Positions 2 through 54,283 of a DNA stretch of 54,313 nucleotides are shown here, one piece after another. Where the stretch lies: assembly GCA_049968235.1 (NCBI GenBank), contig JBMFRC010000022.1, positions 1-54,313 of the forward strand, read 5' to 3'. The notes beneath the pieces were generated by a model. That model saw only the letters and a program-made list of their open reading frames with translations. It was not told where the DNA came from and did not search any database. Source of the stretch: Candidatus Hydrogenedens sp. Lineage in GTDB: Bacteria > Hydrogenedentota > Hydrogenedentia > Hydrogenedentales > Hydrogenedentaceae. Numbering within the stretch: position 1 is the first letter of the stretch; the number at the start of each line of letters is the position of its first letter. The translations under genes were made by a program, and so were the position numbers.

Positions 2-697
2 GCAGGCTGGACAAATCAAAATAGAGGAAAAGAAAATGCAGAGGAGTTTATTAAAAAAAGTTTTCCTTCATTGATGGAATACTTAAAACAATATGAAGAG
101 AAAGCAAAAAAACGAGATGACCAAGGCGATTATTGGTGGGAACTTCGCAAATGTGCCTACTACCCCGAGTTTGAGAAGGAGAAGATTATTTACATTGAAA
201 TAATGACCGATAATTGGGAAGAAGGTTATGAATTTCCATGTTATACATATAGAAATGACACATGCTTTGTCTTAAATACCGCCTACATTATGACAGGTAA
301 AAATTTAAAATATATACTTGGATTATTGAATTCTAAATTTGGTAGTTATTTGGTAAAGCAACATGTTACTCAGCTTCAAAAAAGGCAATTTAGAATGTTG
401 GCACAATATGTAAACAATTTTGAGATTTCCCCCATCACGTCAGGGAACGAGGGCTTGGTGAAGCGTATAGAGGAACTCGTAGATAAAATCCTGGCGGCAA
501 AGAAAGATAACCCGCAGGCGGATACAAAAAATTTTGAAGAGGAAATAGACAAGCTTGTTTATAAATTGTATAATTTAACGGAAGAGGAGATAAGGATAAT
601 TGAAGGAGGGGAAATAACTCCGTGCTACTCCGTGGAGAGAGAAAAAAAATACTCCACCACAGAGACACAGAGAAACATAGAGAAGCAAAAGGGATGA
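2..697 (+). CDS. 5'-truncated CDS: C-terminal TaqI-like target-recognition domain of a type IIG restriction enzyme / N6-adenine DNA methyltransferase (Eco57I/PglX-like)
   Basis: The reading frame is open from the window edge (AGWTNQNRGKENAEEFIKK...) into the tracked ORF. Motifs such as YIMTGKNLKYILGLLNSKFGSYL and DYWWEL are typical of the TaqI_C specificity domain found at the C-terminus of type IIG RM / BREX PglX methylases. Confidence 0.5.
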   Translation, partial: AGWTNQNRGKENAEEFIKKSFPSLMEYLKQYEEKAKKRDDQGDYWWELRKCAYYPEFEKEKIIYIEIMTDNWEEGYEFPCYTYRNDTCFVLNTAYIMTGKNLKYILGLLNSKFGSYLVKQHVTQLQKRQFRMLAQYVNNFEISPITSGNEGLVKRIEELVDKILAAKKDNPQADTKNFEEEIDKLVYKLYNLTEEEIRIIEGGEITPCYSVEREKKYSTTETQRNIEKQKG

Positions 698-9836: not shown

Positions 9837-11291
9837 CTATTCCAATCCAAGTCGTTTGATTCTATATTGTAGGGTTGTTCGTTTAATTCCTAATAATTCA
9901 GCGGCACGAGTTTTGTTCCAATGGAACTTTTCTAAGGCTTTGAGGATTAGTTCTCTTTCCAGTCGTTCCGTATGCTGTTCCAGAGAAAGGTCTTCTTTAT
10001 CTTGTTGCTCATTTTTGATTTCGGATTCTACCTGTCGGTTTGTTTCTATATAGTTTTGTAATTCAAAAGGCATCTCATTTATCGTAACCTGAGGTCCTGT
10101 TGCTAAAACGATAGCACGTTCCATTATATTTTCCAATTCGCGGATATTACCGGGCCAGGGGTATCGTAAGAATAAATCAATAACCTCATCATCAACTTCA
10201 TATACCTCTTTTCGCAACTCCATACTAAATTTGTTTAAGAAATGTTCTACCAATGCCGGTATATCATCCGGTCGTTCCTTTAACGGCGGAACGTATATAG
10301 AAAACACGTTTAGGCGATAATAGAAATCTTCACGAAATGTTCCCTGAACAATTGCCTGTCTTAAATCACGATTCGTTGCAGCTACAATCCGCACGTCTAC
10401 TTTAATAGTTTCTGTTCCACCTACGCGTTCGAACTCTCCATCCTGAAGTACGCGTAGTAGTTTTACCTGAACACTGGGGTCAATTTCACCCACTTCATCG
10501 AGGAATAAAGTTCCCTTATGAGCCCGTTCGAATCGCCCTTCCCTTCTTGAAGTAGCCCCTGTAAATGCTCCCTTTTCATGACCGAATAGTTCGCTTTCCA
10601 GTAATGTTGGAGCTAATGACGCACAATTCAATGCGATAAAAGGTTCATCCCGTCGTGGACTTGCTTCGTGGAGAGCCCTTGCTACAAGTTCTTTCCCTAC
10701 ACCACTGGGACCTGTTATTAGAACCGAACTTTTGGTGGGTGCTACTCGTGCAATAATTTGACGTAGTTGTCTTGTTTGTGCACTTTCTCCTACCAGATGT
10801 TGCACAGAGGGATGTATCCATGTCTGGGCTCTGTTCGTATTTTTTATTTGTATTTGTTTTGCCAGTTTGGAAATTTTATTTTGTAAAACCGCCAATTGGA
10901 AGGGCTTTGTAATAAAATCGTGAGCCCCTAATCGCATTGCTTCAACAGCGATTTCGATAGTCCCATATGCGGTGATAATAATTACTTCTGTTTCGGGTGA
11001 TACACTTTTAACATAACGTAGGACATCCATACCTGACTTGCCGGGCATACTTAGGTCTGTAATCACAATGTGATATAAATGACGGGTGATTTTGTCTATA
11101 GCCTCCTCACCCGTAGATGCATTACTTACTTTGTAACCCATTTCCAGGAAAGTTTGAGAAAGCAAATTCCTCATATTTTCCCGGTCATCCACAATAAGAA
11201 TGTGAATAATGGCTTCTTTTTCCTGTGTGTTTGTTGACATATTTTTTAAATTTTCCTTCTCGGTTGGTGCTGAACAAATTGTGTTTTCCAT
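9837..11291 (-). CDS. sigma-54-dependent response regulator (NtrC family: REC + AAA+ + Fis HTH)
   Basis: ILIVDDRENMRNLL receiver domain; ITGPSGVGKELVARALH Walker A; GHEKGAFTGA (GAFTGA motif); C-terminal HTH LLGIKRTTLQYRIKRL. Confidence 0.9.
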   Translation of the reverse strand: MENTICSAPTEKENLKNMSTNTQEKEAIIHILIVDDRENMRNLLSQTFLEMGYKVSNASTGEEAIDKITRHLYHIVITDLSMPGKSGMDVLRYVKSVSPETEVIIITAYGTIEIAVEAMRLGAHDFITKPFQLAVLQNKISKLAKQIQIKNTNRAQTWIHPSVQHLVGESAQTRQLRQIIARVAPTKSSVLITGPSGVGKELVARALHEASPRRDEPFIALNCASLAPTLLESELFGHEKGAFTGATSRREGRFERAHKGTLFLDEVGEIDPSVQVKLLRVLQDGEFERVGGTETIKVDVRIVAATNRDLRQAIVQGTFREDFYYRLNVFSIYVPPLKERPDDIPALVEHFLNKFSMELRKEVYEVDDEVIDLFLRYPWPGNIRELENIMERAIVLATGPQVTINEMPFELQNYIETNRQVESEIKNEQQDKEDLSLEQHTERLERELILKALEKFHWNKTRAAELLGIKRTTLQYRIKRLGLE

Positions 11292-11293
11292 TG

Positions 11294-11611
11294 TTATCCA
11301 TTCCCAAATAGTTTTTCAAATTCCTTTTTTGCTTTATTTTTTTGTTCTTCCCATGAGGTATCCGAATTTCTTTCTTTCATTTCAAAATCATCACAGAAAT
11401 TCGGTCCTTCACGGTCTGCTATCTTTTCTGTATTGGGTATCATACAATCATTAGGTTTTCCCGGTGTATACCATCTACAGCTATTGCAACAATGCAAGTA
11501 TGCATTACATTTCGGACATGTTTCCTTTACCCCCGGCTGTTTTTTTGTAATGCTTTCCCAAGGATTTCCGCATCTATAGCAACTTTTCATCGAAAAATCC
11601 TTAAAAATCAA
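11294..11611 (-). CDS. small Cys-rich zinc-ribbon protein (hypothetical), directly upstream of and co-directional with the sigma-54 regulator
   Basis: It has 10+ cysteines in CxxC / CxxC / CCxxC arrangements (CYRCGNPW...CPKCNAYLHCCNSC...). There is a 2-bp gap to the downstream regulator gene. Confidence 0.5.
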   Translation of the reverse strand: MIFKDFSMKSCYRCGNPWESITKKQPGVKETCPKCNAYLHCCNSCRWYTPGKPNDCMIPNTEKIADREGPNFCDDFEMKERNSDTSWEEQKNKAKKEFEKLFGNG

Positions 11612-21123: not shown

Positions 21124-22422
21124 ATGATGAATAAAATCGTTATATCAAAGGGAGAAAGCAGTCAGATTTCCAAAGAAATTATCCAGAATATAAAAAATAT
21201 CTTAGAAAAATTTGGTCCACGGGAACCCGGTTCGGAAAGTGAATATAAGACTCAAGAATATTTAGCAGAAGAATTGAGTAAATATACCAATTCTGTGGTT
21301 ATAGAACCTTTCACTGTGGCTCCAATGGGTCTTCTTTTTTTCTTCCCTGTAACGGGTATTATCGTTTTTTTTAGTTCCGCTATACTCAATCATCAACCCT
21401 ATATTGCATTTTTGGGATTAGTTATTTCCTTGGCAATTATTTGGTTCCAATTCGGACAATACCGAAAGTTATTAGATCCGTTTCTTCCTAAGAGACAATC
21501 CAATAATGTCTGTGCCCGATGGAGCCCTTCAGGGAAAAATATAACTCAACGAATTATTTTATGTGGTCATGCAGATAGTGCTTATGAAATGCGATATAAC
21601 CAATGGGGGAGATTATATATAAAACTTGCGGTTGTATCTATGATAATAAGCATGCTGGTACTACTTTTCCTATCCTTACTTTTTTCGTATGAATATTTCA
21701 AAGGAGAGGAATTATCATTTATCCCGGATAGTGTCCAAAAATTTACCTTTTTATTTGGAATTATATATGGTTTGATTGCAGTTTCTTTTATAAGATTTTC
21801 GCGAGTAGTTCCCGGTGCCAATGACAACTTGACTGGAAGTGTTACTGCCGTTGAAGTATTAAAATGGTTTTCTAAACATCCTTTAGAAATACAAAATACG
21901 GAAATTGTATGTTTAATAACAGGTAGTGAAGAGGCTGGTTTACGCGGTGCTATGGCTTTTGTTGAAAACCATAAAGAAGAACTAAAAAATCTTCCTACCG
22001 TTGCTCTATCTATTGATACTTTAGGTGATTTTGCTGAATTGGGAGTTATTGTTCGCGATTTAAATGGTTTATTAGCTCATCATAGAGGAGTTATTTCACT
22101 GCTATATCAGGCGGGTTTAGATTGTGGAATTCAGTTAAAACCTATTACTGTATTCTTAGGCTCTTCCGATGCCACCGCTTTTACTCGTGCTGGTATCCCT
22201 GCTTCCGGTTTGGTTGCTATGGACCCCGGGCCAGCTCATTATTACCATACGCGATATGACACAGCAGATGTCTTGAACGAAGAAACATTATCTACGGGAT
22301 TTACTATCCTTATACAGGCAGTTAAAAACTACGACACTTATGGACTACCAGAAAAAGGATATATTCCTGTCCCTCAGAAGAAACGGCAATTAGAAAAATC
22401 AGAAGAGTTGGCAGTTGGATAG
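21124..22422 (+). CDS. M28-family zinc peptidase with inserted transmembrane segments
   Basis: ILCGHADSAYEM (H.D), ANDNLTGSVTAV (D), GSEEAGLRGA (EE) and HTRYD (H) are M28 metal ligands. There are multiple hydrophobic helices between the N-terminal and catalytic parts. Confidence 0.75.
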   Translation: MMNKIVISKGESSQISKEIIQNIKNILEKFGPREPGSESEYKTQEYLAEELSKYTNSVVIEPFTVAPMGLLFFFPVTGIIVFFSSAILNHQPYIAFLGLVISLAIIWFQFGQYRKLLDPFLPKRQSNNVCARWSPSGKNITQRIILCGHADSAYEMRYNQWGRLYIKLAVVSMIISMLVLLFLSLLFSYEYFKGEELSFIPDSVQKFTFLFGIIYGLIAVSFIRFSRVVPGANDNLTGSVTAVEVLKWFSKHPLEIQNTEIVCLITGSEEAGLRGAMAFVENHKEELKNLPTVALSIDTLGDFAELGVIVRDLNGLLAHHRGVISLLYQAGLDCGIQLKPITVFLGSSDATAFTRAGIPASGLVAMDPGPAHYYHTRYDTADVLNEETLSTGFTILIQAVKNYDTYGLPEKGYIPVPQKKRQLEKSEELAVG

Positions 22423-22456
22423 GTTTTCCCAAAACAATTTTATAAGTTTGCGAGCC

Positions 22457-22700
22457 CTGAACAAGTGGTTTAAGAGGCAGGGTATAAATTATACATGTTT
22501 TTACGAGATAGAATCCCGATGAGAAATTAAAATACAAGAGTCCGTGTCTCACTTTTCATATTTTATTTGCTATTTTCTGTTCGTTTTTCTATCTTTTTGT
22601 TATCTATACATATCACTCATTATACATCCGTTTTAATTATATACAGTCATTAACAAGAAATGATATGCTCCTCTCTCTATCCCTCTCCGTGTTCTCCGTG
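22457..22700 (+). repeat. dispersed ~250-bp intergenic repeat, copy A
   Basis: About 80% identical by eye to 31122..31377. Shared blocks include GTATAAATTATACAT, TTACGAGATARAATCC, ATGAGAAATTAAAATACAAGAG, CGTTTTTCTATCTTTTTGTTATCTAT and ATTAACAAGAAATGATAT.CTCCTCTCTCT. Confidence 0.8.
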
Positions 22701-23054
22701 CCCTTCTGTGTTCTCCGTTATATTTCAGTTAAAAATCATATTTTAGGATCGAATAATCACTTGCCTCAATAAATCCACACACTTTATCTATATCGACCCT
22801 TTATGAAATGGAAGCATACACATAAATGAACGCAAACAAATAAACACACAGGTTTGCCTGTTTGATGTGTATATTTTGGGTTCTTTGTTTAGAAGTGCGA
22901 TGATGTTACAAATGTAAGATTTTTTATTAAATTGCAATTATTCATGCAAAAATAAGATAATATACGATGTGTTTTTTGAGTTAGATAATCTTTCTAATAG
23001 GAATTTTTGTTTTTAGCAAAATTCTAATATAAAACTGATTAATGGAGTAAAATT

Positions 23055-26000
23055 ATGAACAGACCAATGTATACACTTGATGGTAACGAAGCGGTTGCCA
23101 CTATTGCTTATCAGGTAAATGACGCTGCTGCTATTTATCCTATTACCCCGTCTTCTCCAATGGGCGAATTTATGGACCAATGGGCAGCAGAGGGCAGGAA
23201 AAATATATGGGGGAATATTCCCCAAGTGGTGGAGATGCAAAGCGAAGCCGGAGCCGCGGGTGCTGTTCACGGAGCCTTGCAAGCAGGTGCTATTACAACC
23301 ACATTTACAGCTTCGCAAGGTTTAATGCTTATGTTGCCGAATATGTACAAAATTGCCGGTGAACTCACTCCTACTGTATTTCATGTTTCGGCTCGTTCCC
23401 TTGCTATTCATGCTCTTTCCATTTTTGGAGACCATTCAGATGTTATGGCAGCCCGCACAACGGGTTTTGCCCTTTTGGCTTCTGCTTCTGTACAGGAAGC
23501 AATGGATTTTGCTTTAATTGCCCAGTCATCGACATTAAAATCAAGAATTCCATTTCTGCATTTCTTTGATGGTTTCCGCACTTCTCATGAAGTTGTGAAA
23601 ATAGAAATGCTTACTCAGGAAGATATAAGAGCTATGATAGATGAAGAATATGTTCGGGCACATCGGGAAAGAGCCTTAAATCCTGATAAACCTATAATTC
23701 GTGGAACCGCTCAAAACCCGGATGTGTATTTTCAGGGTAGAGAGACCTGTAATCCATATTATTTATCATGCCCTGCTATTGTTCAGGAATATATGGACCG
23801 TTTTGCAAAAATCACAGGTAGGCAATATCATCTCTTTGACTATATAGGTGCTCCCGATGCAGAAAGGATATTGATACTAATGGGTTCCGGCTGTGAAGCA
23901 GTAACAGAAACCATTGATTATCTCGTAAGTAAAGGAGAAAAAGTCGGTGCTATAAAAGTCCGTCTCTATCGTCCGTTCAATGTTCAGGCTTTTATTAAAA
24001 CAATACCTGCTTCCGTAAAGAAAATAGCGGTATTAGACCGTTGTAAAGAATCCGGTGCACCTGGAGAACCTCTTTATCTGGATGTTGTAAATGCAATTAC
24101 TGAAGCCTATACAAACGGTGAAATTAAAGTAATTCCAAAGATTATCGGTGGCAGATATGGACTTTCTTCCAAAGAATTTACCCCTGCAATGATTAAAGGT
24201 GTTCTGGATGAATTATCTAAAGATAAACCCAAAAATCATTTTACTGTTGGAATTCAAGATGATGTAACGCATACCAGCATTGACTACGACCCCAGTTTCT
24301 CAACCGAAGACCCCAGTGTGGTTCGGGCTGTTTTCTATGGGTTAGGTTCTGATGGAACTATAGGAGCCAACAAAAACTCCATCAAGATTATCGGTGAAGA
24401 TACTCCGAACTATGCTCAAGGATACTTCGTTTACGACTCTAAAAAGTCGGGGTCAATGACAGTGTCCCATCTACGGTTTGGACCAAAAGAAATTCATTCA
24501 AACTATCTTATTACGCGGGCTAATTTTGTAGCATGTCACCAATTCAGTTTCATCGAAAAATATGATATATTAAAACTGGCAGAAAACAATGCTATTTTCT
24601 TACTAAATAGCCCTTATGGTCCCGATGATGTGTGGAACTACTTACCCAAAACCACCCAAAAACGCATAATTGATAAGAAAATCAAGTTCTATGTAATTGA
24701 TGCTGTGAAAGTTGCTCGCGACGCTGGAATGGGTGGAAGAATTAATACCATTATGCAGACTTGCTTTTTTGCTATTAGTGGAATTTTACCGCGAGATAAA
24801 GCGATAAAAGCCATTAAAGATTCTATAAAGAAAACCTATGGGAAACGCGGAGAAGCCATTGTCCAGAAGAATTGGCAGGCTGTCGATATGACATTAGACC
24901 ATCTTCATGAAGTTCAAGTGCCAGACCAGGTAACCAGTTCATTCGATTTTGCACCACCTATTCCCGATGAAGCTCCAGATTTTGTAAGAAATGTGTTGTC
25001 AAAAATTATTGCAGGAGAAGGTGACGAAATTCCTGTAAGTCAACTACCAGTAGATGGAACATTCCCTACGGGAACTACTAAATGGGAAAAACGGAATATT
25101 GGTCTCGAAATCCCTGTATGGGACCCCGAGGTTTGTATCCAATGTGGCAAGTGTGTGATGGTGTGTCCGCATGCGGTTATCCGTGCAAAAATATATGACC
25201 CGAAATATTTAGAAAAAGCACCACCTACCTTCAAATCAACAGAACCCAAGTGGAAAGAGTATAAACATCTACGATATACATTACAGGTGTCTCCAGAGGA
25301 CTGCACAGGTTGCGGATTATGTTATGAAGTTTGTATTGCGAAGAATAAGAAAGAAGTAAAAAATCGTGGTGTAACAATGCAACCCCAGGCACCCCTTCGG
25401 GAAATGGAACGGGAAAACTGGAACTTCTTTGAAACTATCCCTTATATTGAGAGGTCTCAGGTTAACTTAAATCTGGTCAAAGATATTCAATTGCTTCAAC
25501 CCCTTTTTGAATTCTCAGGTGCTTGTGCCGGCTGTGGTGAAACACCGTATGTGAAATTGATGTCCCAGTTATTTGGTGACCGGATGTTAATTGCCAATGC
25601 AACCGGCTGTTCTTCAATTTATGGTGGAAATTTACCTACAACGCCATGGACTACCAATGCAGAAGGTAAAGGTCCTGCATGGAGTAATTCGTTATTTGAA
25701 GACAATGCAGAATTTGGTATGGGAATAAGAGTGGCGGTAGATACGCAATTAAGTTATGCACAGTATCTTCTGAAACAATTAGAAACGCAGATAGGGACAG
25801 AATTGATTTCCGCTTTATTAACAGCCAACCAGACAACAGAAGAGGGAATTAAAGCCCAGAGAGAGCGTGTAAACATTCTTAAACAAAAATTAAGTAATTT
25901 AGATAATCCTCTTGCGAAGGAATTATTATCTGTTGCAGATGTTCTTGTTAAAAGAAGTGTATGGGTTCTCGGCGGTGATGGTTGGGCTTATGACATTGGT

Positions 26001-26669
26001 TACGGTGGACTTGACCATGTAATTGCGTCTAATCGTGATATAAATATTTTAGTTTTAGACACAGAAGTATATTCTAACACGGGTGGACAATGTTCAAAAG
26101 CAACACCTCGTGCTGCAGTTGCTAAATTTGCTGCAGGTGGGAAACCTGCTCCTAAGAAAGACCTCGCTCTGATGGCAATGACTTATGGCACCTGCTATGT
26201 AGCAAGAGTTTCAATGGGTGCCAATGATGCTCATACTGTAAAAGCCTTCCGTGAAGCAGAAGCCTATCCTGGACCTTCTTTAATTATCGCTTATTGCCAT
26301 TGTATTGCTCATGGTTACAACCTTATTATGGGGTTAGAGCAACAAAAGAAAGCAGTAGCCACAGGTCATTGGCAACTTGTGCGGTATAACCCACTACTAT
26401 TGAATGAAGGTAAGAACCCACTTCAATTAGACTCAAAAGGTCCTTCTATGCCATTACAGGAATATGTATATAATGAGACCCGTTATAAAATGTTATCCTT
26501 AAGCAATCCTGAAATGGCTAAAACGCTCCTGGATGAGGCTCAACGGGATGTAAGGATGCGCTGGAAATTATATGAATACTTAGCATCTATGACTTGTGAT
26601 GAACTACAATCAGAAATGAAAAATATTCAAGAAACCGTGGTAGAAAACCAAAATAATGGTATAAGATAA
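23055..26669 (+). CDS. nifJ: pyruvate:ferredoxin (flavodoxin) oxidoreductase
   Basis: 1204 aa. Canonical PFOR N-terminus [38 protein letters not shown], two 4Fe-4S ferredoxin motifs ([12 protein letters not shown]; [11 protein letters not shown]), and a TPP domain [10 protein letters not shown]. Confidence 0.95.
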
Positions 26670-26680
26670 GGAGTTGGAAA

Positions 26681-27682
26681 ATGGTAGATTTAACAACAAA
26701 CTATATCGGATTGAAACTCAGAAACCCCCTTGTTGTTTCACCTTCCCCTTTGTGTGACAACATTGATAACATAAAACGAATGGAAGATAGAGGTGCTTCC
26801 GCTGTTGTTTTACATTCATTATTTGAAGAACAAATTACTTTATTAAGCCATGAATTAGATACCAATCTTTCGTATGGTGCTGAGAGTTTTGCAGAAGCCA
26901 TTACCTATTTCCCCGACTTAGGTGATTTTCGTATGGGTCCCGATGCTTATCTGGAGCATATATATAAAGCAAAGCAATCCGTTTCCATTCCTATTATGGG
27001 TAGTTTAAATGGCGTATCAAAGGGGGGGTGGATTGAATATGCCAAGAAGATTCAAGAAGCCGGTGCGGATGCCCTTGAACTCAATATCTATTTTATTCCT
27101 ACCGACCCTAATCTAACAAGTGATTATGTCTCCAATATGTATGTTGAACTGGTTAAAGAAATTAGAAAAGTAGTTACTATTCCCTTAGCCGTCAAAATAG
27201 GTCCTTATTTCAGTTCTCTGCCGAATGTGGCTAAAAGACTGGCTGAAGCCGGTGCCAATGCTCTGGTTTTCTTTAATCGTTTTTATCAACCCGATTTTGA
27301 CCTTGATAATTTAGAAGTTACCCCTCATATCAATCTTAGCACATCCAATACTTTATTACTTCGCTTACGCTGGGTGGCTATTCTATATAGTAGGATTCCT
27401 ATTGATTTTGCAATTACAGGTGGAGTTCATACAGCAGAAGATGTAATAAAATCCATGATGGCAGGCGCAAAAGTATCTATGATGACTTCAGCACTGCTAA
27501 AATTTGGCATACCTCATTTATCAACCGTTCTGAAAAAATTAGAACAATGGATGAATGAACACGAGTACGATTCTATTGAAATAATGCAGGGAAGTATGAG
27601 CCAGAAGTCGGTAAACGAACCTGCTGCATTTGAACGGGCAAATTACATGCATGCAATTACTCGCTATACCGCAGGGAGTTAA
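26681..27682 (+). CDS. dihydroorotate dehydrogenase-family TIM-barrel flavoprotein (PyrD/PreA-like), function uncertain
   Basis: [14 protein letters not shown], a central Lys-containing loop and C-terminal GGV...G resemble DHOD class 1 / dihydropyrimidine dehydrogenase catalytic barrels. There is no Fe-S C-terminus. Confidence 0.6.
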
Positions 27683-27749
27683 TTGAGCATAACGCATATT
27701 AAAAATATTTCAATCATTAATAACTGTTTCCTTTTGTTAATTTTATAAA

Positions 27750-29897
27750 ATGGCTTCTTTAAATCCTGACCAAATAAAGGCTGTTCATGCGAATGAATCG
27801 GCTGTGTTAGTTTTATCGGGGGCTGGAACAGGAAAAACAAGGGTTATCGTCGAACATATTATCTGGCTGATAAATGAGATGGGAATTTCTCCGGAGCGAA
27901 TTCTTGCAGTTACCTTTACCAACAAATCTGCCGGTGAGATGAAGAAAAGAGTTCTTGCCCGAATTAATCAAACAGAAAAACAGCCATGGGTAGGAACATT
28001 TCATTCGTTCGGACTACAATTTCTACGGAAATATGCTTCTCACATCAATCTCAAAAATAATTTCATACTTATAGATGATGATGACCAGATTTCACTTCTG
28101 AAAAAAATTTTGAAATCGAACCCTATCCTTTTAGAGCAATTTACACCCCGTGATGTTCAGGTTTGGATAAGTAGATACAAACAAAATATTTCCGAGCCTA
28201 AAGATAGCAAGATAACTCCACCCAATTCCCATTTCCTTAAACTTTGGGATATATATCAGAATACTTTATATTCACAAAGTATGGTGGATTTCGATGATTT
28301 AATTTCTCTCCCTGTAAAAATCTTGGAAGAACACAGTTCCATTCGTGAAAGAATGCACCATTACTTTACGGATATATTGGTTGATGAATTTCAGGATACA
28401 AATCATGCCCAATTTCGCCTTGTCCAGGCATTAAAAGGCACACATAATCGTGTCTTTGTCGTAGGTGATGAAGACCAATGTATTTATTCCTGGCGAGGGA
28501 GTGATTTGAATAATATACTGAATTTCCCCCAAATTTTTCCAGGTACTGCTATATATAGGTTAGAACAAAATTACCGTAGTACAAAGAATATTTTATTGTT
28601 AGCTAACAAATTAGTTGAACATAACGAAAACCGTTTGGGTAAAAAACTATGGACTAAAAATGACGAAGGGGAAAAAGTTCAATTTTACTGGGCGAATACA
28701 GATGAAGAAGAAGCAGAATGGATTGCCAATGATATACAAAAAAATCAGTATCCTCTGGAAGAAGTTGCCATCCTATTCCGTACCAACCATCAGTCTCGCC
28801 CTTTTGAAGAATCTTTCCGAAAAAGAGGTATTCCACATATTGTCATCGGGGGTATTCGTTTCTATGCCCGAAAAGAAATCAAAGATATTATTGCCTACCT
28901 TCGTCTTATTACTAATGAAGAAGATGACGATGCATTCCGCCGAATTGTAAATGTTCCTCCCCGCAATTTAGGACAGGTAAGTCTGCAACAAATTGAAGTA
29001 TACGCAAAACAAAGACAAAAACCTTTGTTCCATGTTTTACAGTTTATCGAACACGACGAAACTTTTCCTCTACGAATACGAAAATCCATCAAAGAATTTG
29101 TGGACTTGATAAATGAAGTAAAATTAGTTTCAAAAGAAAAAACAGTAGGGGAAATTGTTAAATATTTACTTGAAAAAATAAACTATTGGGAATATATAAA
29201 TAATATTGCAGAAAAAGAAGGGAAAGACCGCGAAAAAAGTATTCATGAATTTATTACTATATGTGAACAAAATTCTGCAAAAGAAAAATCCCTTCTTGAA
29301 TTTCTACAAGAATTTGCTCTGTTGTCCGATTTCGATACACAACAACCACAAAAAAATGCCATTCATCTATTAACCTGCCACAGTGCAAAAGGACTCGAAT
29401 TTAACTATGTTTATCTAACAGGTTTAGAAGAAGGTCTGTTTCCATACCTTGATGAAGATGATCCCTATGCAGATATTGAGGAAGAACGGAGACTTTGTTA
29501 TGTGGCTATGACCCGTGCTCGAAAACGACTTGTTCTCTCCGGGTCTGCATCCAGATTATATTATGGCAGGCTAATATCAGATAGACTTATGTCTCGTTTC
29601 CTGCTTGAAATGGACCTAAAGAATGTAGAAGTATATGGTATAAAGAAAAACATGGAAACTAAAAAAGTAATGAATTCCGTGCCAGAGAAAAAATTATCAC
29701 CCATAAAAGAAAAGGAAAAAGGAGAATACCGTTTGGGAACAAGAGTCCGACATGCTAAATTCGGATATGGCGTTGTTTTAAATACAGAGGGTAGTGGCGA
29801 TAAAATGAGGGTAAGAGTTCGTTTCGAATCTGGTAAAATAGCAGTTCTGGTTGTTAATATGGCACCAATGGAAATTATTGAGAGGAGAAAAAATTGA
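27750..29897 (+). CDS. pcrA: ATP-dependent DNA helicase, UvrD/PcrA/Rep family
   Basis: VLSGAGTGKTRV (Walker A), DEFQDTN, LEQNYRS, TCHSAKGLEF, and a C-terminal Tudor-like domain GTRVRHAKFGYGVV. Confidence 0.9.
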   Translation: MASLNPDQIKAVHANESAVLVLSGAGTGKTRVIVEHIIWLINEMGISPERILAVTFTNKSAGEMKKRVLARINQTEKQPWVGTFHSFGLQFLRKYASHINLKNNFILIDDDDQISLLKKILKSNPILLEQFTPRDVQVWISRYKQNISEPKDSKITPPNSHFLKLWDIYQNTLYSQSMVDFDDLISLPVKILEEHSSIRERMHHYFTDILVDEFQDTNHAQFRLVQALKGTHNRVFVVGDEDQCIYSWRGSDLNNILNFPQIFPGTAIYRLEQNYRSTKNILLLANKLVEHNENRLGKKLWTKNDEGEKVQFYWANTDEEEAEWIANDIQKNQYPLEEVAILFRTNHQSRPFEESFRKRGIPHIVIGGIRFYARKEIKDIIAYLRLITNEEDDDAFRRIVNVPPRNLGQVSLQQIEVYAKQRQKPLFHVLQFIEHDETFPLRIRKSIKEFVDLINEVKLVSKEKTVGEIVKYLLEKINYWEYINNIAEKEGKDREKSIHEFITICEQNSAKEKSLLEFLQEFALLSDFDTQQPQKNAIHLLTCHSAKGLEFNYVYLTGLEEGLFPYLDEDDPYADIEEERRLCYVAMTRARKRLVLSGSASRLYYGRLISDRLMSRFLLEMDLKNVEVYGIKKNMETKKVMNSVPEKKLSPIKEKEKGEYRLGTRVRHAKFGYGVVLNTEGSGDKMRVRVRFESGKIAVLVVNMAPMEIIERRKN

Positions 29898-30970
29898 ATA
29901 TTAACGAATTAAGAAAAAAAATCGATGAGATTGACCAGAAAATCATTAGCCTTCTAAATGAACGAGCCTACTGTGCTCAAGAGATAGGCAAAATTAAAAG
30001 TGGTTCACAGGCACCTTTTTATGTACCCGAACGCGAAAAATCCGTAATAGAAAAATTACTACAATCCAATCACGGTCCATTAGATGAACGGGCTATCCGT
30101 TCCATCTATCGCGAAATCATGAGTGCCATCCGTTCCCTTGAAAAACCGACCAGCGTTGCCTTCTTAGGACCTCGCGATACTTTCAGTCACATGGCTGCCT
30201 TACGTGTATTTGGCACCTCCGCCGAATATCATCCATTGCCTTCTTTTGCAGATGTATTTACAGAAGTAGAACGACATCGCATCGATTACGGAGTTGTTCC
30301 TATTGAAAGTTCAACGGGTGGTTCTGTAAGTGATACTCTGGATTTATTTATCAATTCAGAATTGAAGATTATTAATGAAGTTCTCCTCCAAATTTCTCAG
30401 AACCTCCTTGCAAAATGTCCCATTGACCAGGTTCGTCGGGTATATTCAAAAGATAATGCTCTACTTCAATGCAGAAATTGGCTTCGGGCAAATCTCCCCG
30501 GTGTTGAATTAATTGAGGTATCCAGTACCGCAGAAGCCGCAAGACGCGCTTCTCAAGAACCCAATACTTCTGCTATTGCCAGCAAATTAGCCGCAGAAAC
30601 TTATAATCTCGAAATTATCGCAGAACATATTGAAGACATTCCGCATAACTATACAAGGTTTGTCGTTTTAGGACATCAAATTGTAGAGCCTACCGGAGAT
30701 GACAAAACATCGCTCCTTTTATCGGCAAAAGATAAACCCGGAGCCTTGTTCAACCTTCTTATGCCCTTTGCTGAATTTAACATTAATTTAACCCGTATTG
30801 AATCCCGTCCGTCTCGCCAAAAACCCTGGGAATATGTATTCTTCATTGATTTTCTCGGGCATATCAAAGATGAAAAGGTTCACCAAGTTATTGAGGATGT
30901 TAGTGACCGAGCAAGAGACCTGAAAATATTAGGTTCATTCCCTCGTGCTACTATTGAACTCGAAGCATAG
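29894..30970 (+). CDS. pheA: bifunctional chorismate mutase / prephenate dehydratase (P-protein)
   Basis: CM domain ELRKKIDEIDQKIISLLNERA, PDT domain, and C-terminal ACT domain (ESRPS). Confidence 0.9.
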   Translation: MNINELRKKIDEIDQKIISLLNERAYCAQEIGKIKSGSQAPFYVPEREKSVIEKLLQSNHGPLDERAIRSIYREIMSAIRSLEKPTSVAFLGPRDTFSHMAALRVFGTSAEYHPLPSFADVFTEVERHRIDYGVVPIESSTGGSVSDTLDLFINSELKIINEVLLQISQNLLAKCPIDQVRRVYSKDNALLQCRNWLRANLPGVELIEVSSTAEAARRASQEPNTSAIASKLAAETYNLEIIAEHIEDIPHNYTRFVVLGHQIVEPTGDDKTSLLLSAKDKPGALFNLLMPFAEFNINLTRIESRPSRQKPWEYVFFIDFLGHIKDEKVHQVIEDVSDRARDLKILGSFPRATIELEA

Positions 30971-31121
30971 AGATACATAAAAATTGATTATTAATGAGTA
31001 TCGAGGAATAAGTTCTATATCTTCATCTTATTTACACAAACCCATTGACTAACACTATCTTATTTATTTTATCAGACTAATAAAAAAAGACTTGACAAAT
31101 ACTTTATTTTGTATGAGACCT

Positions 31122-31377
31122 CTGAACGATTGTATAAGAGGTCGGAGTATAAATTATACATTTTCTTACGAGATAAAATCCTAATGAGAAATTAAAATAC
31201 AAGAGCCTATATCTCTCTTTTTACCCATTTTATTTGTTATTTTACATCCGTTTTTCTATCTTTTTGTTATCTATGCATATTTTCCCTTTTGCTCTCTTAA
31301 TTTCCCATACATCCTCTTCAAATCATATGCAGTTATTAACAAGAAATGATATACTCCTCTCTCTGTGTCCTCTGTTG
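31122..31377 (+). repeat. dispersed ~250-bp intergenic repeat, copy B (same orientation as copy A)
   Basis: See copy A. It ends in a 16-bp-stem hairpin (31361..31411). Confidence 0.8.
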
Positions 31378-31960
31378 TAAAAAGAATATAATCACCACAG
31401 AGAACACAGAGAAAACATCATATACTGTTTAACAATGCATAAAATAGTAAGGATGAAAGCCTTTGCTCTCCCCAGTTCGTTTTATATCCTTCGCTCTCTA
31501 TCCACCTCTGCTCAAATTCCTCAATGGTATCACCTCTTGCATCTGTCTCTAAAAAATATCTGTAACGGGTCGGTTTCTGATGAGGCATCTCGTAATCTAT
31601 AAAAAAAACTTGTTTGCTCTATCTTTTCGGTATACAGCAATGACCTTTCTTCATTTTTAGTTTTTCCTTGTTTTGTTATTTAACCCACAATAGTTCTGCT
31701 GTATTTATACTACTTCTCTCTATTCTCGTTTCATTTTTTCTCTCACCCCTTCTCGTATATAATTTATATCATCTAACTCGGATGACTTATTCAAAACTCT
31801 CATGTATATTTTCATGCTCAGGTAAAATATGCTTATTTGTATTTATTCCTTTTATAAAACCTATTAATAATAAGCCTTTGTTAGATACAGAGGCTATGGT
31901 CTGAAAGATAAGCGAAGAATGTCACAGTAAATACTGCGTATTTTAGAAAACATCCTGAGA

Positions 31961-32062
31961 ATTTGGATAAAACAAAAAAGCAAGGATAGTAATAACTTCC
32001 TTCAACCACACCTTCAAGGGTGCCTTATTTGGATAAGGCAAAAAAGCAAGGATAGTAATAAC
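31961..32062 (+). repeat. CRISPR-like mini-array: two 36-bp direct repeats (2 mismatches) separated by a unique 30-bp spacer
   Basis: R1 31961..31996 ATTTGGATAAAACAAAAAAGCAAGGATAGTAATAAC; R2 32027..32062 ATTTGGATAAGGCAAAAAAGCAAGGATAGTAATAAC; spacer TTCCTTCAACCACACCTTCAAGGGTGCCTT is not repeated. Confidence 0.3.
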
Positions 32063-32286
32063 ATTTCGCGTAAATGCATTTGCAAAGCATGAGTTTCCAA
32101 AAAAAAAAAAGAGTTTATGTATGTGAGGGAAATACTGTTTAGTTGAGAAGAATATGGAAAGAACCGTGGAGTAATCTGGGTAGATCTAGAGACTGAACAA
32201 GTAATCGGGGCAGGTCCCTATAAGCAAGATGTGCAATAGTTTATGATGTTATATCTTTTGTCTGTAATGAATAGAGAAATTCAGAA

Positions 32287-53671: not shown

Positions 53672-54283
53672 TTATTTACAAGGATGGTAATTATATTTAT
53701 TACACGGTATGTTATCGGCTGTTTTTATTCGAGAAATTCCCCATATTTTTTTACAGTTTAAATCTAACCATATGACACCCATTATTTGCTTTTGAGTATA
53801 TTCGTCAATATATGTAAAATCTATTTCCCATACATATGAAGAAATATATTGTTTTTCCCCTCTTTTGTCAAACTCGAACTCATTTTTATTCGGGGCGATA
53901 ACTAATTTAGGTATAACATTATCTAATATTTTGGGATTATATGTATTTACATCCAGTTCTTCTTTTATCAGTTCTCTCGCTTTTTGATATATAATTGTTA
54001 TCGGAGGTTCCTCTGGAATATCTACTTTTGTAGGACAAGGAAATTTTCTATAAAAAAATCTTTTAATGGTTTTCTCTGTCTTTGAAAGAGAAACAATAAA
54101 TGTCTGAGAACGGTCAGGAATACCATCCAATGAAAAATATAAAATTATATTAAGTAAATCTTTTGACGAATCGTTTTTTATTTTATAGCAATTTTTATCT
54201 TCCGGGAAATCGAAATATTTTAACAACTTATTAATTTTTTCAATGAAAATTTCTTCTTGCGAAGAAATATCCTTTTCAGACAA
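53672..54283 (-). CDS. hypothetical protein (AT-rich, Lys/Asn-rich)
   Basis: Long ORF with no recognisable motifs. Confidence 0.35.
   Translation of the reverse strand: MSEKDISSQEEIFIEKINKLLKYFDFPEDKNCYKIKNDSSKDLLNIILYFSLDGIPDRSQTFIVSLSKTEKTIKRFFYRKFPCPTKVDIPEEPPITIIYQKARELIKEELDVNTYNPKILDNVIPKLVIAPNKNEFEFDKRGEKQYISSYVWEIDFTYIDEYTQKQIMGVIWLDLNCKKIWGISRIKTADNIPCNKYNYHPCK

Follow-up and report, generated by a model that had tools for sequence, protein, structure and literature searches.

Two similar intergenic sequences that stand on either side of a block of core genes raise the question of whether the sequences and the block belong together, or whether each of the sequences has a history of its own. 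Such a pair occurs in the DNA analysed here, a 54,313-bp contig (the window) of a metagenome-assembled genome (MAG) of Candidatus Hydrogenedens sp. The two copies of the repeat, termed copy A and copy B, bracket 8.4 kb that hold the genes for PFOR, a DHOD-like protein, PcrA and PheA. An original prediction had offered three explanations for the pair, namely paralogous small RNA (sRNA) genes, an element resembling a miniature inverted-repeat transposable element (MITE), and a recombinogenic repeat that could delete or duplicate the bracketed segment. In this study, we report that the two copies are homologous and noncoding, and that they lie in separate lineage-specific insertions, so that their position around the block is incidental. 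The reading that we put forward, at a probability somewhat under one half (about 0.45), is that they belong to a dispersed, noncoding repeat of ~235-255 bp that is specific to the species, and are diverged relics of a non-autonomous mobile element. Additionally, we describe a miniature CRISPR array in a decaying gene beyond copy B, which was probably created in place by the Cas1-Cas2 proteins of the cell. The origin of new CRISPR arrays is an open question, and the mini-array matters more than the repeat.

Sequences compared

The window was compared with two further assemblies of the same species, each of which covers it in part: GCA_049969095.1 (contigs L081, L097 and L099), which is 99.7-99.9% identical to the window, and GCA_049971155.1 (contigs L098 and L100). 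Comparators from the Hydrogenedentota were retrieved through the DHOD-like protein (L001-L006) and through homologues of QueC (L088-L095). The closest relative by protein identity is the lineage represented by L089, L090 and L093, with 96% identity in PheA and 90% in PcrA. Statements on the copy number of the repeat rest on 54 kb of genome together with the overlapping fragments of the two sister MAGs.

Homology, position and fixation of the repeat pair

Gapped blastn aligned copies A and B in the same orientation with 77.3% identity over 255 columns (E ~4e-50), a little below the 80% that had been estimated by eye. Exact blocks of 26, 22, 18 and 15 nt are common to both. Two of the blocks, ATGAGAAATTAAAATACAAGAG (at 22519 and 31184) and CGTTTTTCTATCTTTTTGTTATCTAT (at 22582 and 31249), occur exactly twice each in the window and not once in 100 shuffles. 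Alignment and block counts together establish that the predicted pair, co-oriented and with long identical stretches, is real. The copies differ by indels of 18, 2 and 1 nt and by a further 1-2 nt close to the left end, and ungapped repeat families widen them to 22432-22686 and 31097-31373. Both lie where they had been placed by the original prediction, which set the left edges ~11 nt short and let the right edges run into a separate CTCYGTG motif (Table 1).

Copy A is situated in the 632-bp gap between the stop codon of an M28 peptidase gene (22422) and the start of PFOR (23055), and copy B starts 140 bp past the stop codon of pheA (30970), both as predicted. The repeat is fixed in the species as sampled, with copy A present in 3 of 3 assemblies and both copies in the 2 of 2 that cover site B, the pheA-queC gap. 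GCA_049969095.1 has both copies. Copy A is 99.8-100% identical across the two other MAGs; in L098 (GCA_049971155.1) one mismatch was found in 498 bp.

Table 1. Features of the repeat pair, the bracketed block and the two insertion sites; coordinates are those of the window
Feature	Coordinates	Strand	Basis or remarks
Copy A, noncoding repeat	22446-22678	+	233 bp; blastn against copy B
Copy B, noncoding repeat	31111-31364	+	254 bp; blastn against copy A
Two direct CTCYGTGTTCTCYGT motifs adjoining copy A	22685-22719	+	Motif has 6 matches in the window, 0.48 expected
Hairpin of inverted CTCTGTG doublets adjoining copy B	31361-31411		DNA fold z = -4.05
Site A insertion, ~495 bp (copy A, CTCYGTG motifs and ~200 bp of unrelated DNA)	22423-22918		Gap comparison
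Bracketed block: PFOR, DHO_dh-family protein, UvrD/PcrA helicase, PheA (chorismate mutase/prephenate dehydratase)	23055-30970	+	Pfam hits, sister assembly
Cassette promoter remnant, with TTGACA at 31092-31097	31055-31110	+	80% over 59 nt, E 4e-10, to L089 17239-17297
Orphan 56-aa open reading frame (ORF), hypothetical protein at NCBI	31418-31588	-	A 98% identical copy in a sister MAG is the sole match in 5.8 billion proteins; no Pfam
Pseudogene, 3' half of a g320-family gene (last cassette gene)	31779-32224	+	tblastn, DNA alignment
Mini CRISPR array: R1 31961-31996, spacer 31997-32026, R2 32027-32062	31961-32062	- (putative)	36-nt repeats, 66-nt spacing

Site A and the bracketed block

The identities predicted for the four genes between the copies agree with the Pfam hits of the identical genes in the sister assembly. 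By tblastn, the order M28, PFOR, DHOD, PcrA, PheA and QueC (the last on the minus strand) was recovered in L001 and L002. The same order holds as far as the contig extends in L003, L005 and L006, and L004 runs only from M28 to within PcrA. Amino acid identity of the block to the window ranges from 74 to 95% in L001-L003 and from 57 to 84% in L005 and L006. No similarity to the repeat was found in L001-L006, nor in the locus of the L089 lineage. Because the block order is kept in relatives that are without the repeats, the bracketing of the 8.4-kb core block is incidental, each copy lying in a lineage-specific insertion.

The lengths of the gaps delimit these insertions. Between M28 and PFOR there are 632 bp in the window, as against 143-155 bp in L001, L003 and L004; in L002 the same gap consists of 450 bp of unrelated sequence (L002 1303-1752). 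The relatives can be aligned with the window downstream of the site A insertion, over a promoter-like site of PFOR that is conserved (TTGCAA-18-GATAAT, 22932-22961) and over the 5' leader. The pheA-queC gap measures 1316 bp in the window (30971-32286) and ~10-70 bp in L001, L002, L005 and L006. A tblastx search for coding remnants in the rest of the two insertions (22679-22918 and 31412-31778) returned none.

L002 also bears an unrelated insertion of its own between DHOD and PcrA (L002 6375-6719), where its gap is 345 bp and that of the window 67 bp. Because L002 carries unrelated insertions at the same intergenic sites, such sites seem to tolerate junk DNA, and the M28-PFOR and DHOD-PcrA gaps appear to have taken up extra DNA repeatedly. 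An imperfect duplication of ~9 bp (TAGG-TTTTCC / TAAGATTTTTT), at 22417-22433 and 22913-22927, surrounds the whole site A insertion. It is weak and putative; the duplicated sequence is the one that follows the M28 stop codon in relatives, and it would suggest a single insertion with a target-site duplication.

A composite transposon, prophage attachment (att) sites, and the template and variable repeats of a diversity-generating retroelement were considered as further identities for the pair and were rejected, given the core synteny, the lack of an integrase or reverse transcriptase, and the indels by which the copies differ.

Site B and the scar of a gene cassette

In L089, L090 and L093, the space between pheA and queC is occupied by an intact four-gene cassette (within 10697-17388 of L089), the products of which, of 479, 638, 408 and 320 aa (g479, g638, g408 and g320), have N-termini resembling signal peptides. 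Pfam and PADLOC searches of the cassette proteins gave nothing informative: all that appeared was a weak match of g638 to the InlB B-repeat and, for g479, a hit below threshold. Two remnants of this cassette are left in the window (Table 1). One is a promoter remnant, whose counterpart in L089 lies upstream of g479, the first cassette gene. The other is a pseudogene of the g320 family, to which tblastn aligned residues 175-270 and 278-317 of L089 g320 (the latter at 65%) with an E-value of 1e-19, and the frame of which is interrupted by stops.

Between the two remnants, 668 bp (31111-31778) are without a counterpart in the cassette. They comprise copy B, a 51-nt hairpin, the orphan ORF, which is probably not a conserved gene, and ~190 bp of anonymous DNA. 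The homology between copies A and B starts at 31111, the very next base after the promoter homology to L089 stops (31110), and because of this coincidence copy B is placed at the exact junction of a replacement that removed ~5.6 kb of cassette. The mechanism of the replacement at this junction is itself something that we infer.

A paralogue of the g320/g408 family, with 29-32% identity, is found at the end of the window (53672-54283, minus strand), and a second cassette may lie beyond it.

A mini CRISPR array in the g320 pseudogene

The g320-family pseudogene contains, starting ~600 bp past copy B, two direct 36-nt repeats that enclose one spacer in the window. At the same place in GCA_049969095.1 (L081) there are four repeats with three unrelated spacers of 30, 30 and 31 nt, and the rest of the 17 kb compared between the window and this sister strain is 99.7-99.9% identical. 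The intact orthologues L089 g320 and L094 h313 each have a single in-frame copy of the 36-nt unit, which codes for FLDNTKKGRIVIT or its equivalent, and the DNA flanking the array on either side aligns with them.

Spacer 3 of the sister strain matches two related IMG/VR contigs (L086 and L087) at 25 of its 31 positions, 23 of them contiguous, within an ORF of more than 1819 aa that belongs to PHROG 358. The mismatches fall in adjacent codons (GIRPTGRLHY versus AIRPTGRLLV), as would be expected for a spacer derived from a related phage. The spacers have no match in the local genome and are unrelated to one another. A variant repeat stands at the pheA-proximal end of the array, and the spacers that the sister strain has in addition are at the queC-proximal end, which suggests that the leader is on the queC side (towards 32063) and that transcription proceeds on the minus strand.

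The locus has several of the features by which CRISPR arrays are recognised: direct repeats within the range of 23-50 nt, unique spacers of similar length, a content that varies between strains, and a match to a mobile element. It also has one mark of a neo-CRISPR, as the unit is single-copy at the orthologous place in relatives and the native flanks persist on both sides. Exact duplication of a 36-nt stretch around spacer-sized inserts is the product of Cas1-Cas2 integration, and we know of no other mechanism that yields such a duplication. We consider it probable that the cell's Cas1-Cas2 took a 36-nt coding stretch of a g320-family gene in decay as a pseudo-repeat, giving rise to a natural neo-CRISPR. 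At least one spacer would then be phage-derived, and one spacer would have been gained in the window strain and three in the sister strain. The 250-bp repeat would be a bystander to these events, or possibly the first representative to be seen of a Hydrogenedentota element, mobile or regulatory, that has not been described before. If the neo-CRISPR interpretation is true, the native array should have a repeat of 36 nt and spacers of ~30 nt, and its repeat ends and leader-proximal flank should have bases in common with GTTATTACTATCCTTGCTTTTTTGCCTTATCCAAAT.

No native CRISPR array was present in the window or in the retrieved loci, the periodic repeats of L003 being a protein-coding tandem repeat, and scans of the sequence collections for the CRISPR repeat came back empty. 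The neighbours of the array are PheA and QueC; no Cas-related Pfam hit was obtained among the ten largest ORFs of uncertain identity, and no anti-repeat was found in the window. A role of the 250-bp element as trans-activating CRISPR RNA (tracrRNA) or anti-repeat was rejected, as its similarity and complementarity to the CRISPR repeat do not go beyond those of shuffled controls.

The contigs of GCA_049971155.1 break on either side of site B, 185 bp into pheA (the end of L098) and inside a 537-aa gene (the start of L100). A possible cause of these breaks is a mixture, in that sample, of strains that differ around the mini-array.

Anatomy of the repeat

Both copies are noncoding: every frame contains stops or loses its register through the indels of 1, 2 and 18 nt, and no frame is shared. 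A protein-coding element was rejected on these grounds, and also because the best-frame peptides match nothing in 5.8 billion proteins; against 1.84 billion proteins, their sole match was to 17 residues of a repetitive 609-aa protein.

Rfam returned no family for either copy at the gathering threshold or with a credible E-value, and a known RNA family was rejected, the matches to microRNA models at 31351-31420 being far under the gathering scores and merely picking up the hairpin. Consensus scans, covering sigma-70-type sites only, found neither a sigma-70-like promoter nor an intrinsic terminator within either copy. On the minus strand of both copies, a perfect TATAAT with a preceding TG is conserved. 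Copy B folds better than its shuffles (z of -4.5 on the plus and -3.5 on the minus strand), and these scores stem from one hairpin near the left end (31117-31143) and another past the right end. Copy A is without both hairpins and folds like its shuffles (z of +0.9 and -1.45). The pairs labelled compensatory by RNAalifold fall in a stretch that MAFFT had shifted by one base and were not counted, two sequences giving no usable covariation. One long-range pairing of copy B, GGAGUAUA/UAUACUCC, is retained in copy A by way of two G-U changes.

A perfect 6-1-6 palindrome, GTATAAATTATAC, makes up one block and is identical in both copies. The differences between the copies are clustered, leaving the four exact runs given above (permutation of the 61 difference events, P ~0.0005 for the summed length of these runs). 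The only inverted repeat, which had been noted in the original prediction and is real, is formed by AAGAGGTCGGAGTATA (31136-31151) and TATACTCCTCTCTCT (31350-31364), its left arm being placed 25 nt inside the element.

Further copies and associated short modules

Further copies of the repeat were sought with 20-28-nt exact words taken from the conserved blocks. Words from block 4 gave no further copies among species-representative genomes and JGI metagenomes, and IMG/VR scans with blocks 3 and 4 and with a pattern of blocks 1-2 gave only a chance match within an integrase gene. An nhmmer search over ~1.4 Mb of retrieved loci recovered the known copies only, blastn against phage and plasmid records produced no match, and two protein collections held no ORFs called across other copies.

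CTCYGTG/CACAGAG doublets follow directly after both copies, in direct arrangement beside copy A and inverted beside copy B (Table 1). A third instance (618-690) lies in the 3' end of a TaqI_C-domain gene, and a related module is located near queC in L089 (~10775-10845), in the opposite orientation. Folding is strong only in the module at 31361-31411, and it is weak in most instances. Short modules are thus dispersed in these genomes and combine into mosaics.

The ORF with the TaqI_C domain (71-697, plus strand) is restriction-modification-like, and its last ~25 codons are made up of the CTCYGTG hairpin module; after it, GATGAGAAATAAAATTAAAAATC (695-716) resembles block 3 of the repeat. In L089, queC is separated from the cassette by 800 bp (10697-11495) that form a mosaic of repeated modules with several GGGC...CCTAC hairpins. 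The mosaic includes two copies of ...TTTTTATRAGKGTGARAAATTAAATACCCGAAGCGAGGAC..., sharing TGAGAAATTAAA and ACATTTTCTT with the repeat of the window, and Rfam gave no hit on it.

Origin of the repeat pair

We propose that the repeat would have reached two 'safe' intergenic sites after the lineage split from its closest sequenced relatives, one between the end of M28 and the PFOR promoter and the other in the scar of the mostly deleted pheA-queC cassette. The copies may be relics of a non-autonomous mobile element, of the MITE kind or of a mosaic repeat of the type of repetitive extragenic palindromic (REP) sequences and bacterial interspersed mosaic elements (BIMEs), travelling with the CTCYGTG hairpin module. 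They do not act as a pair, and the 8.4 kb between them are ordinary core genome. We favour this reading because the copies are noncoding, arrived after the split, occupy sites that tolerate junk, lie in one case at a deletion junction, and are linked to the hairpin module; we also infer that they arrived by a transposition-like insertion rather than by another route. Several findings weigh against it. Terminal inverted repeats are absent, the element ends GTATGAGACC... and ...CTCCTCTCTCT not being complementary; there is no target-site duplication around the homologous part, the flanks of which differ; no transposase is encoded near the copies; and two copies, and none further, were within reach of the searches. 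The clustering of the differences is a hint of constraint, and an element with a function would explain it no worse than one in decay. Because terminal inverted repeats and target-site duplications were looked for and are lacking, we say that the repeat behaves like a MITE and do not file it as one. Of the three explanations in the original prediction, the MITE-like element with weak inverted termini came closest, the copies being noncoding and placed in lineage-specific insertions, but the inverted arms proved not to be terminal.

Clustering and palindrome together are the main argument that some parts of the repeat are, or recently were, under constraint, and they would be accounted for if selection had kept the copies as functional paralogues, be it as a pair of sRNAs or as duplicated regulatory DNA to which proteins bind. 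Long exact blocks, the minus-strand TG-TATAAT kept in both copies, the GGAGUAUA/UAUACUCC pairing that survives by G-U changes, the orientation shared with the flanking genes and the presence of the copies in all assemblies covering their sites point the same way. However, differences can also be clustered by multi-base indel events, and the element is missing from every relative, so that any function would be very young. For sRNA genes in particular, which had been predicted, the lack of an Rfam match at threshold and of a sigma-70-like promoter or intrinsic terminator, the shuffle-like folding of copy A, the restriction of the scores of copy B to end hairpins that are missing in A, and the misaligned stretch behind the compensatory pairs all speak to the contrary, and we regard functional paralogues as unlikely. 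A one-off local duplication, in which one copy served as a template 8.6 kb away for filler DNA when the break behind the cassette deletion was repaired, would need no mobile family. It would suit the proximity and co-orientation of the two known copies, the lack of others in the collections and loci searched, the place of copy B at the exact deletion junction and the want of inverted terminal repeats and target-site duplications. It sits poorly with the 23% divergence and several indels, which would date the event to roughly the time when the L089 lineage split off, with the location of the source copy A in a lineage-specific insertion itself, and with the adjoining CTCYGTG module, which is direct at A, inverted at B and also found independently elsewhere; we consider it quite improbable. 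That direct repeats flank a block would, finally, be expected of recombination substrates, or of the ends of a composite element, that mobilise, delete or duplicate the 8.4 kb, as had also been suggested. Yet the block is in place in the repeat-free relatives, the proposed check for structural variants revealed no rearrangement in the three assemblies of the species, the repeats themselves encode no transposase, and the loss of PFOR, PcrA and PheA should be costly. The copies, moreover, are 77% identical, and no identical run exceeds 26 nt, a length at the bottom of what RecA-dependent exchange requires, going by the minimal processing segments of E. coli. Mobilisation of the block is therefore hardly credible.

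Comparison with known systems

The dispersed-repeat reading makes the element ordinary in kind, a lineage-restricted addition to the broad class of noncoding dispersed repeats. Like MITEs and other non-autonomous elements derived from insertion sequences, it is shorter than 600 bp, AT-rich, noncoding and intergenic, and it is present or absent between relatives at syntenic sites. Unlike them, it is without terminal inverted repeats, target-site duplications at the homologous ends and a matching transposase, and is seen in two diverged copies. With the REP, BIME and REPIN (REP doublets forming hairpins) sequences of proteobacteria it has in common short imperfect palindromes (CTCYGTG/CACAGAG) that are dispersed between genes, form mosaics and often stand after gene ends, but known REPs are unrelated in sequence to the module, which folds weakly in most instances, and the symmetry of REPs is lacking in the 250-bp part. 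Multicopy sRNA families (Qrr, PrrF) and type I toxin-antitoxin loci (LDR) likewise consist of paralogous noncoding copies with conserved blocks amid variable stretches; the repeat described here differs from them in having no promoter or terminator, conserved fold, conserved small ORF or homologues in related genomes. For the repeat alone the significance is limited. Short mosaic repeats build up in this Hydrogenedens lineage at a small number of intergenic sites that tolerate them, and a block bracketed by repeats can be the coincidence of two independent insertions, which calls for caution where mobile units are called from repeats.

The mini-array has its closest parallel in the neo-CRISPR arrays that arise by off-target integration in E. 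coli overproducing Cas1-Cas2, and that 10.1101/148544, PMC7054753 and PMC6698737 attribute to Nivala, Shipman and Church (2018, Nat Microbiol 3:310). Evidence for natural neo-CRISPR arrays was called circumstantial, for two other species, and the direct evidence came only from E. coli overproducing Cas1-Cas2 (10.1101/148544). As in the published arrays, a non-CRISPR sequence is duplicated exactly around each spacer-sized fragment, and a related strain has added spacers. The array described here differs in that it is natural and comes from an uncultured phylum, and in that its pseudo-repeat is a protein-coding piece of a decaying gene. It brings together an ancestral single-copy state preserved in relatives, a pseudo-repeat that can be traced codon by codon, strains caught at one and at three spacers, and a spacer that would be phage-derived, a combination that makes the birth of an array testable in metagenomic time series.

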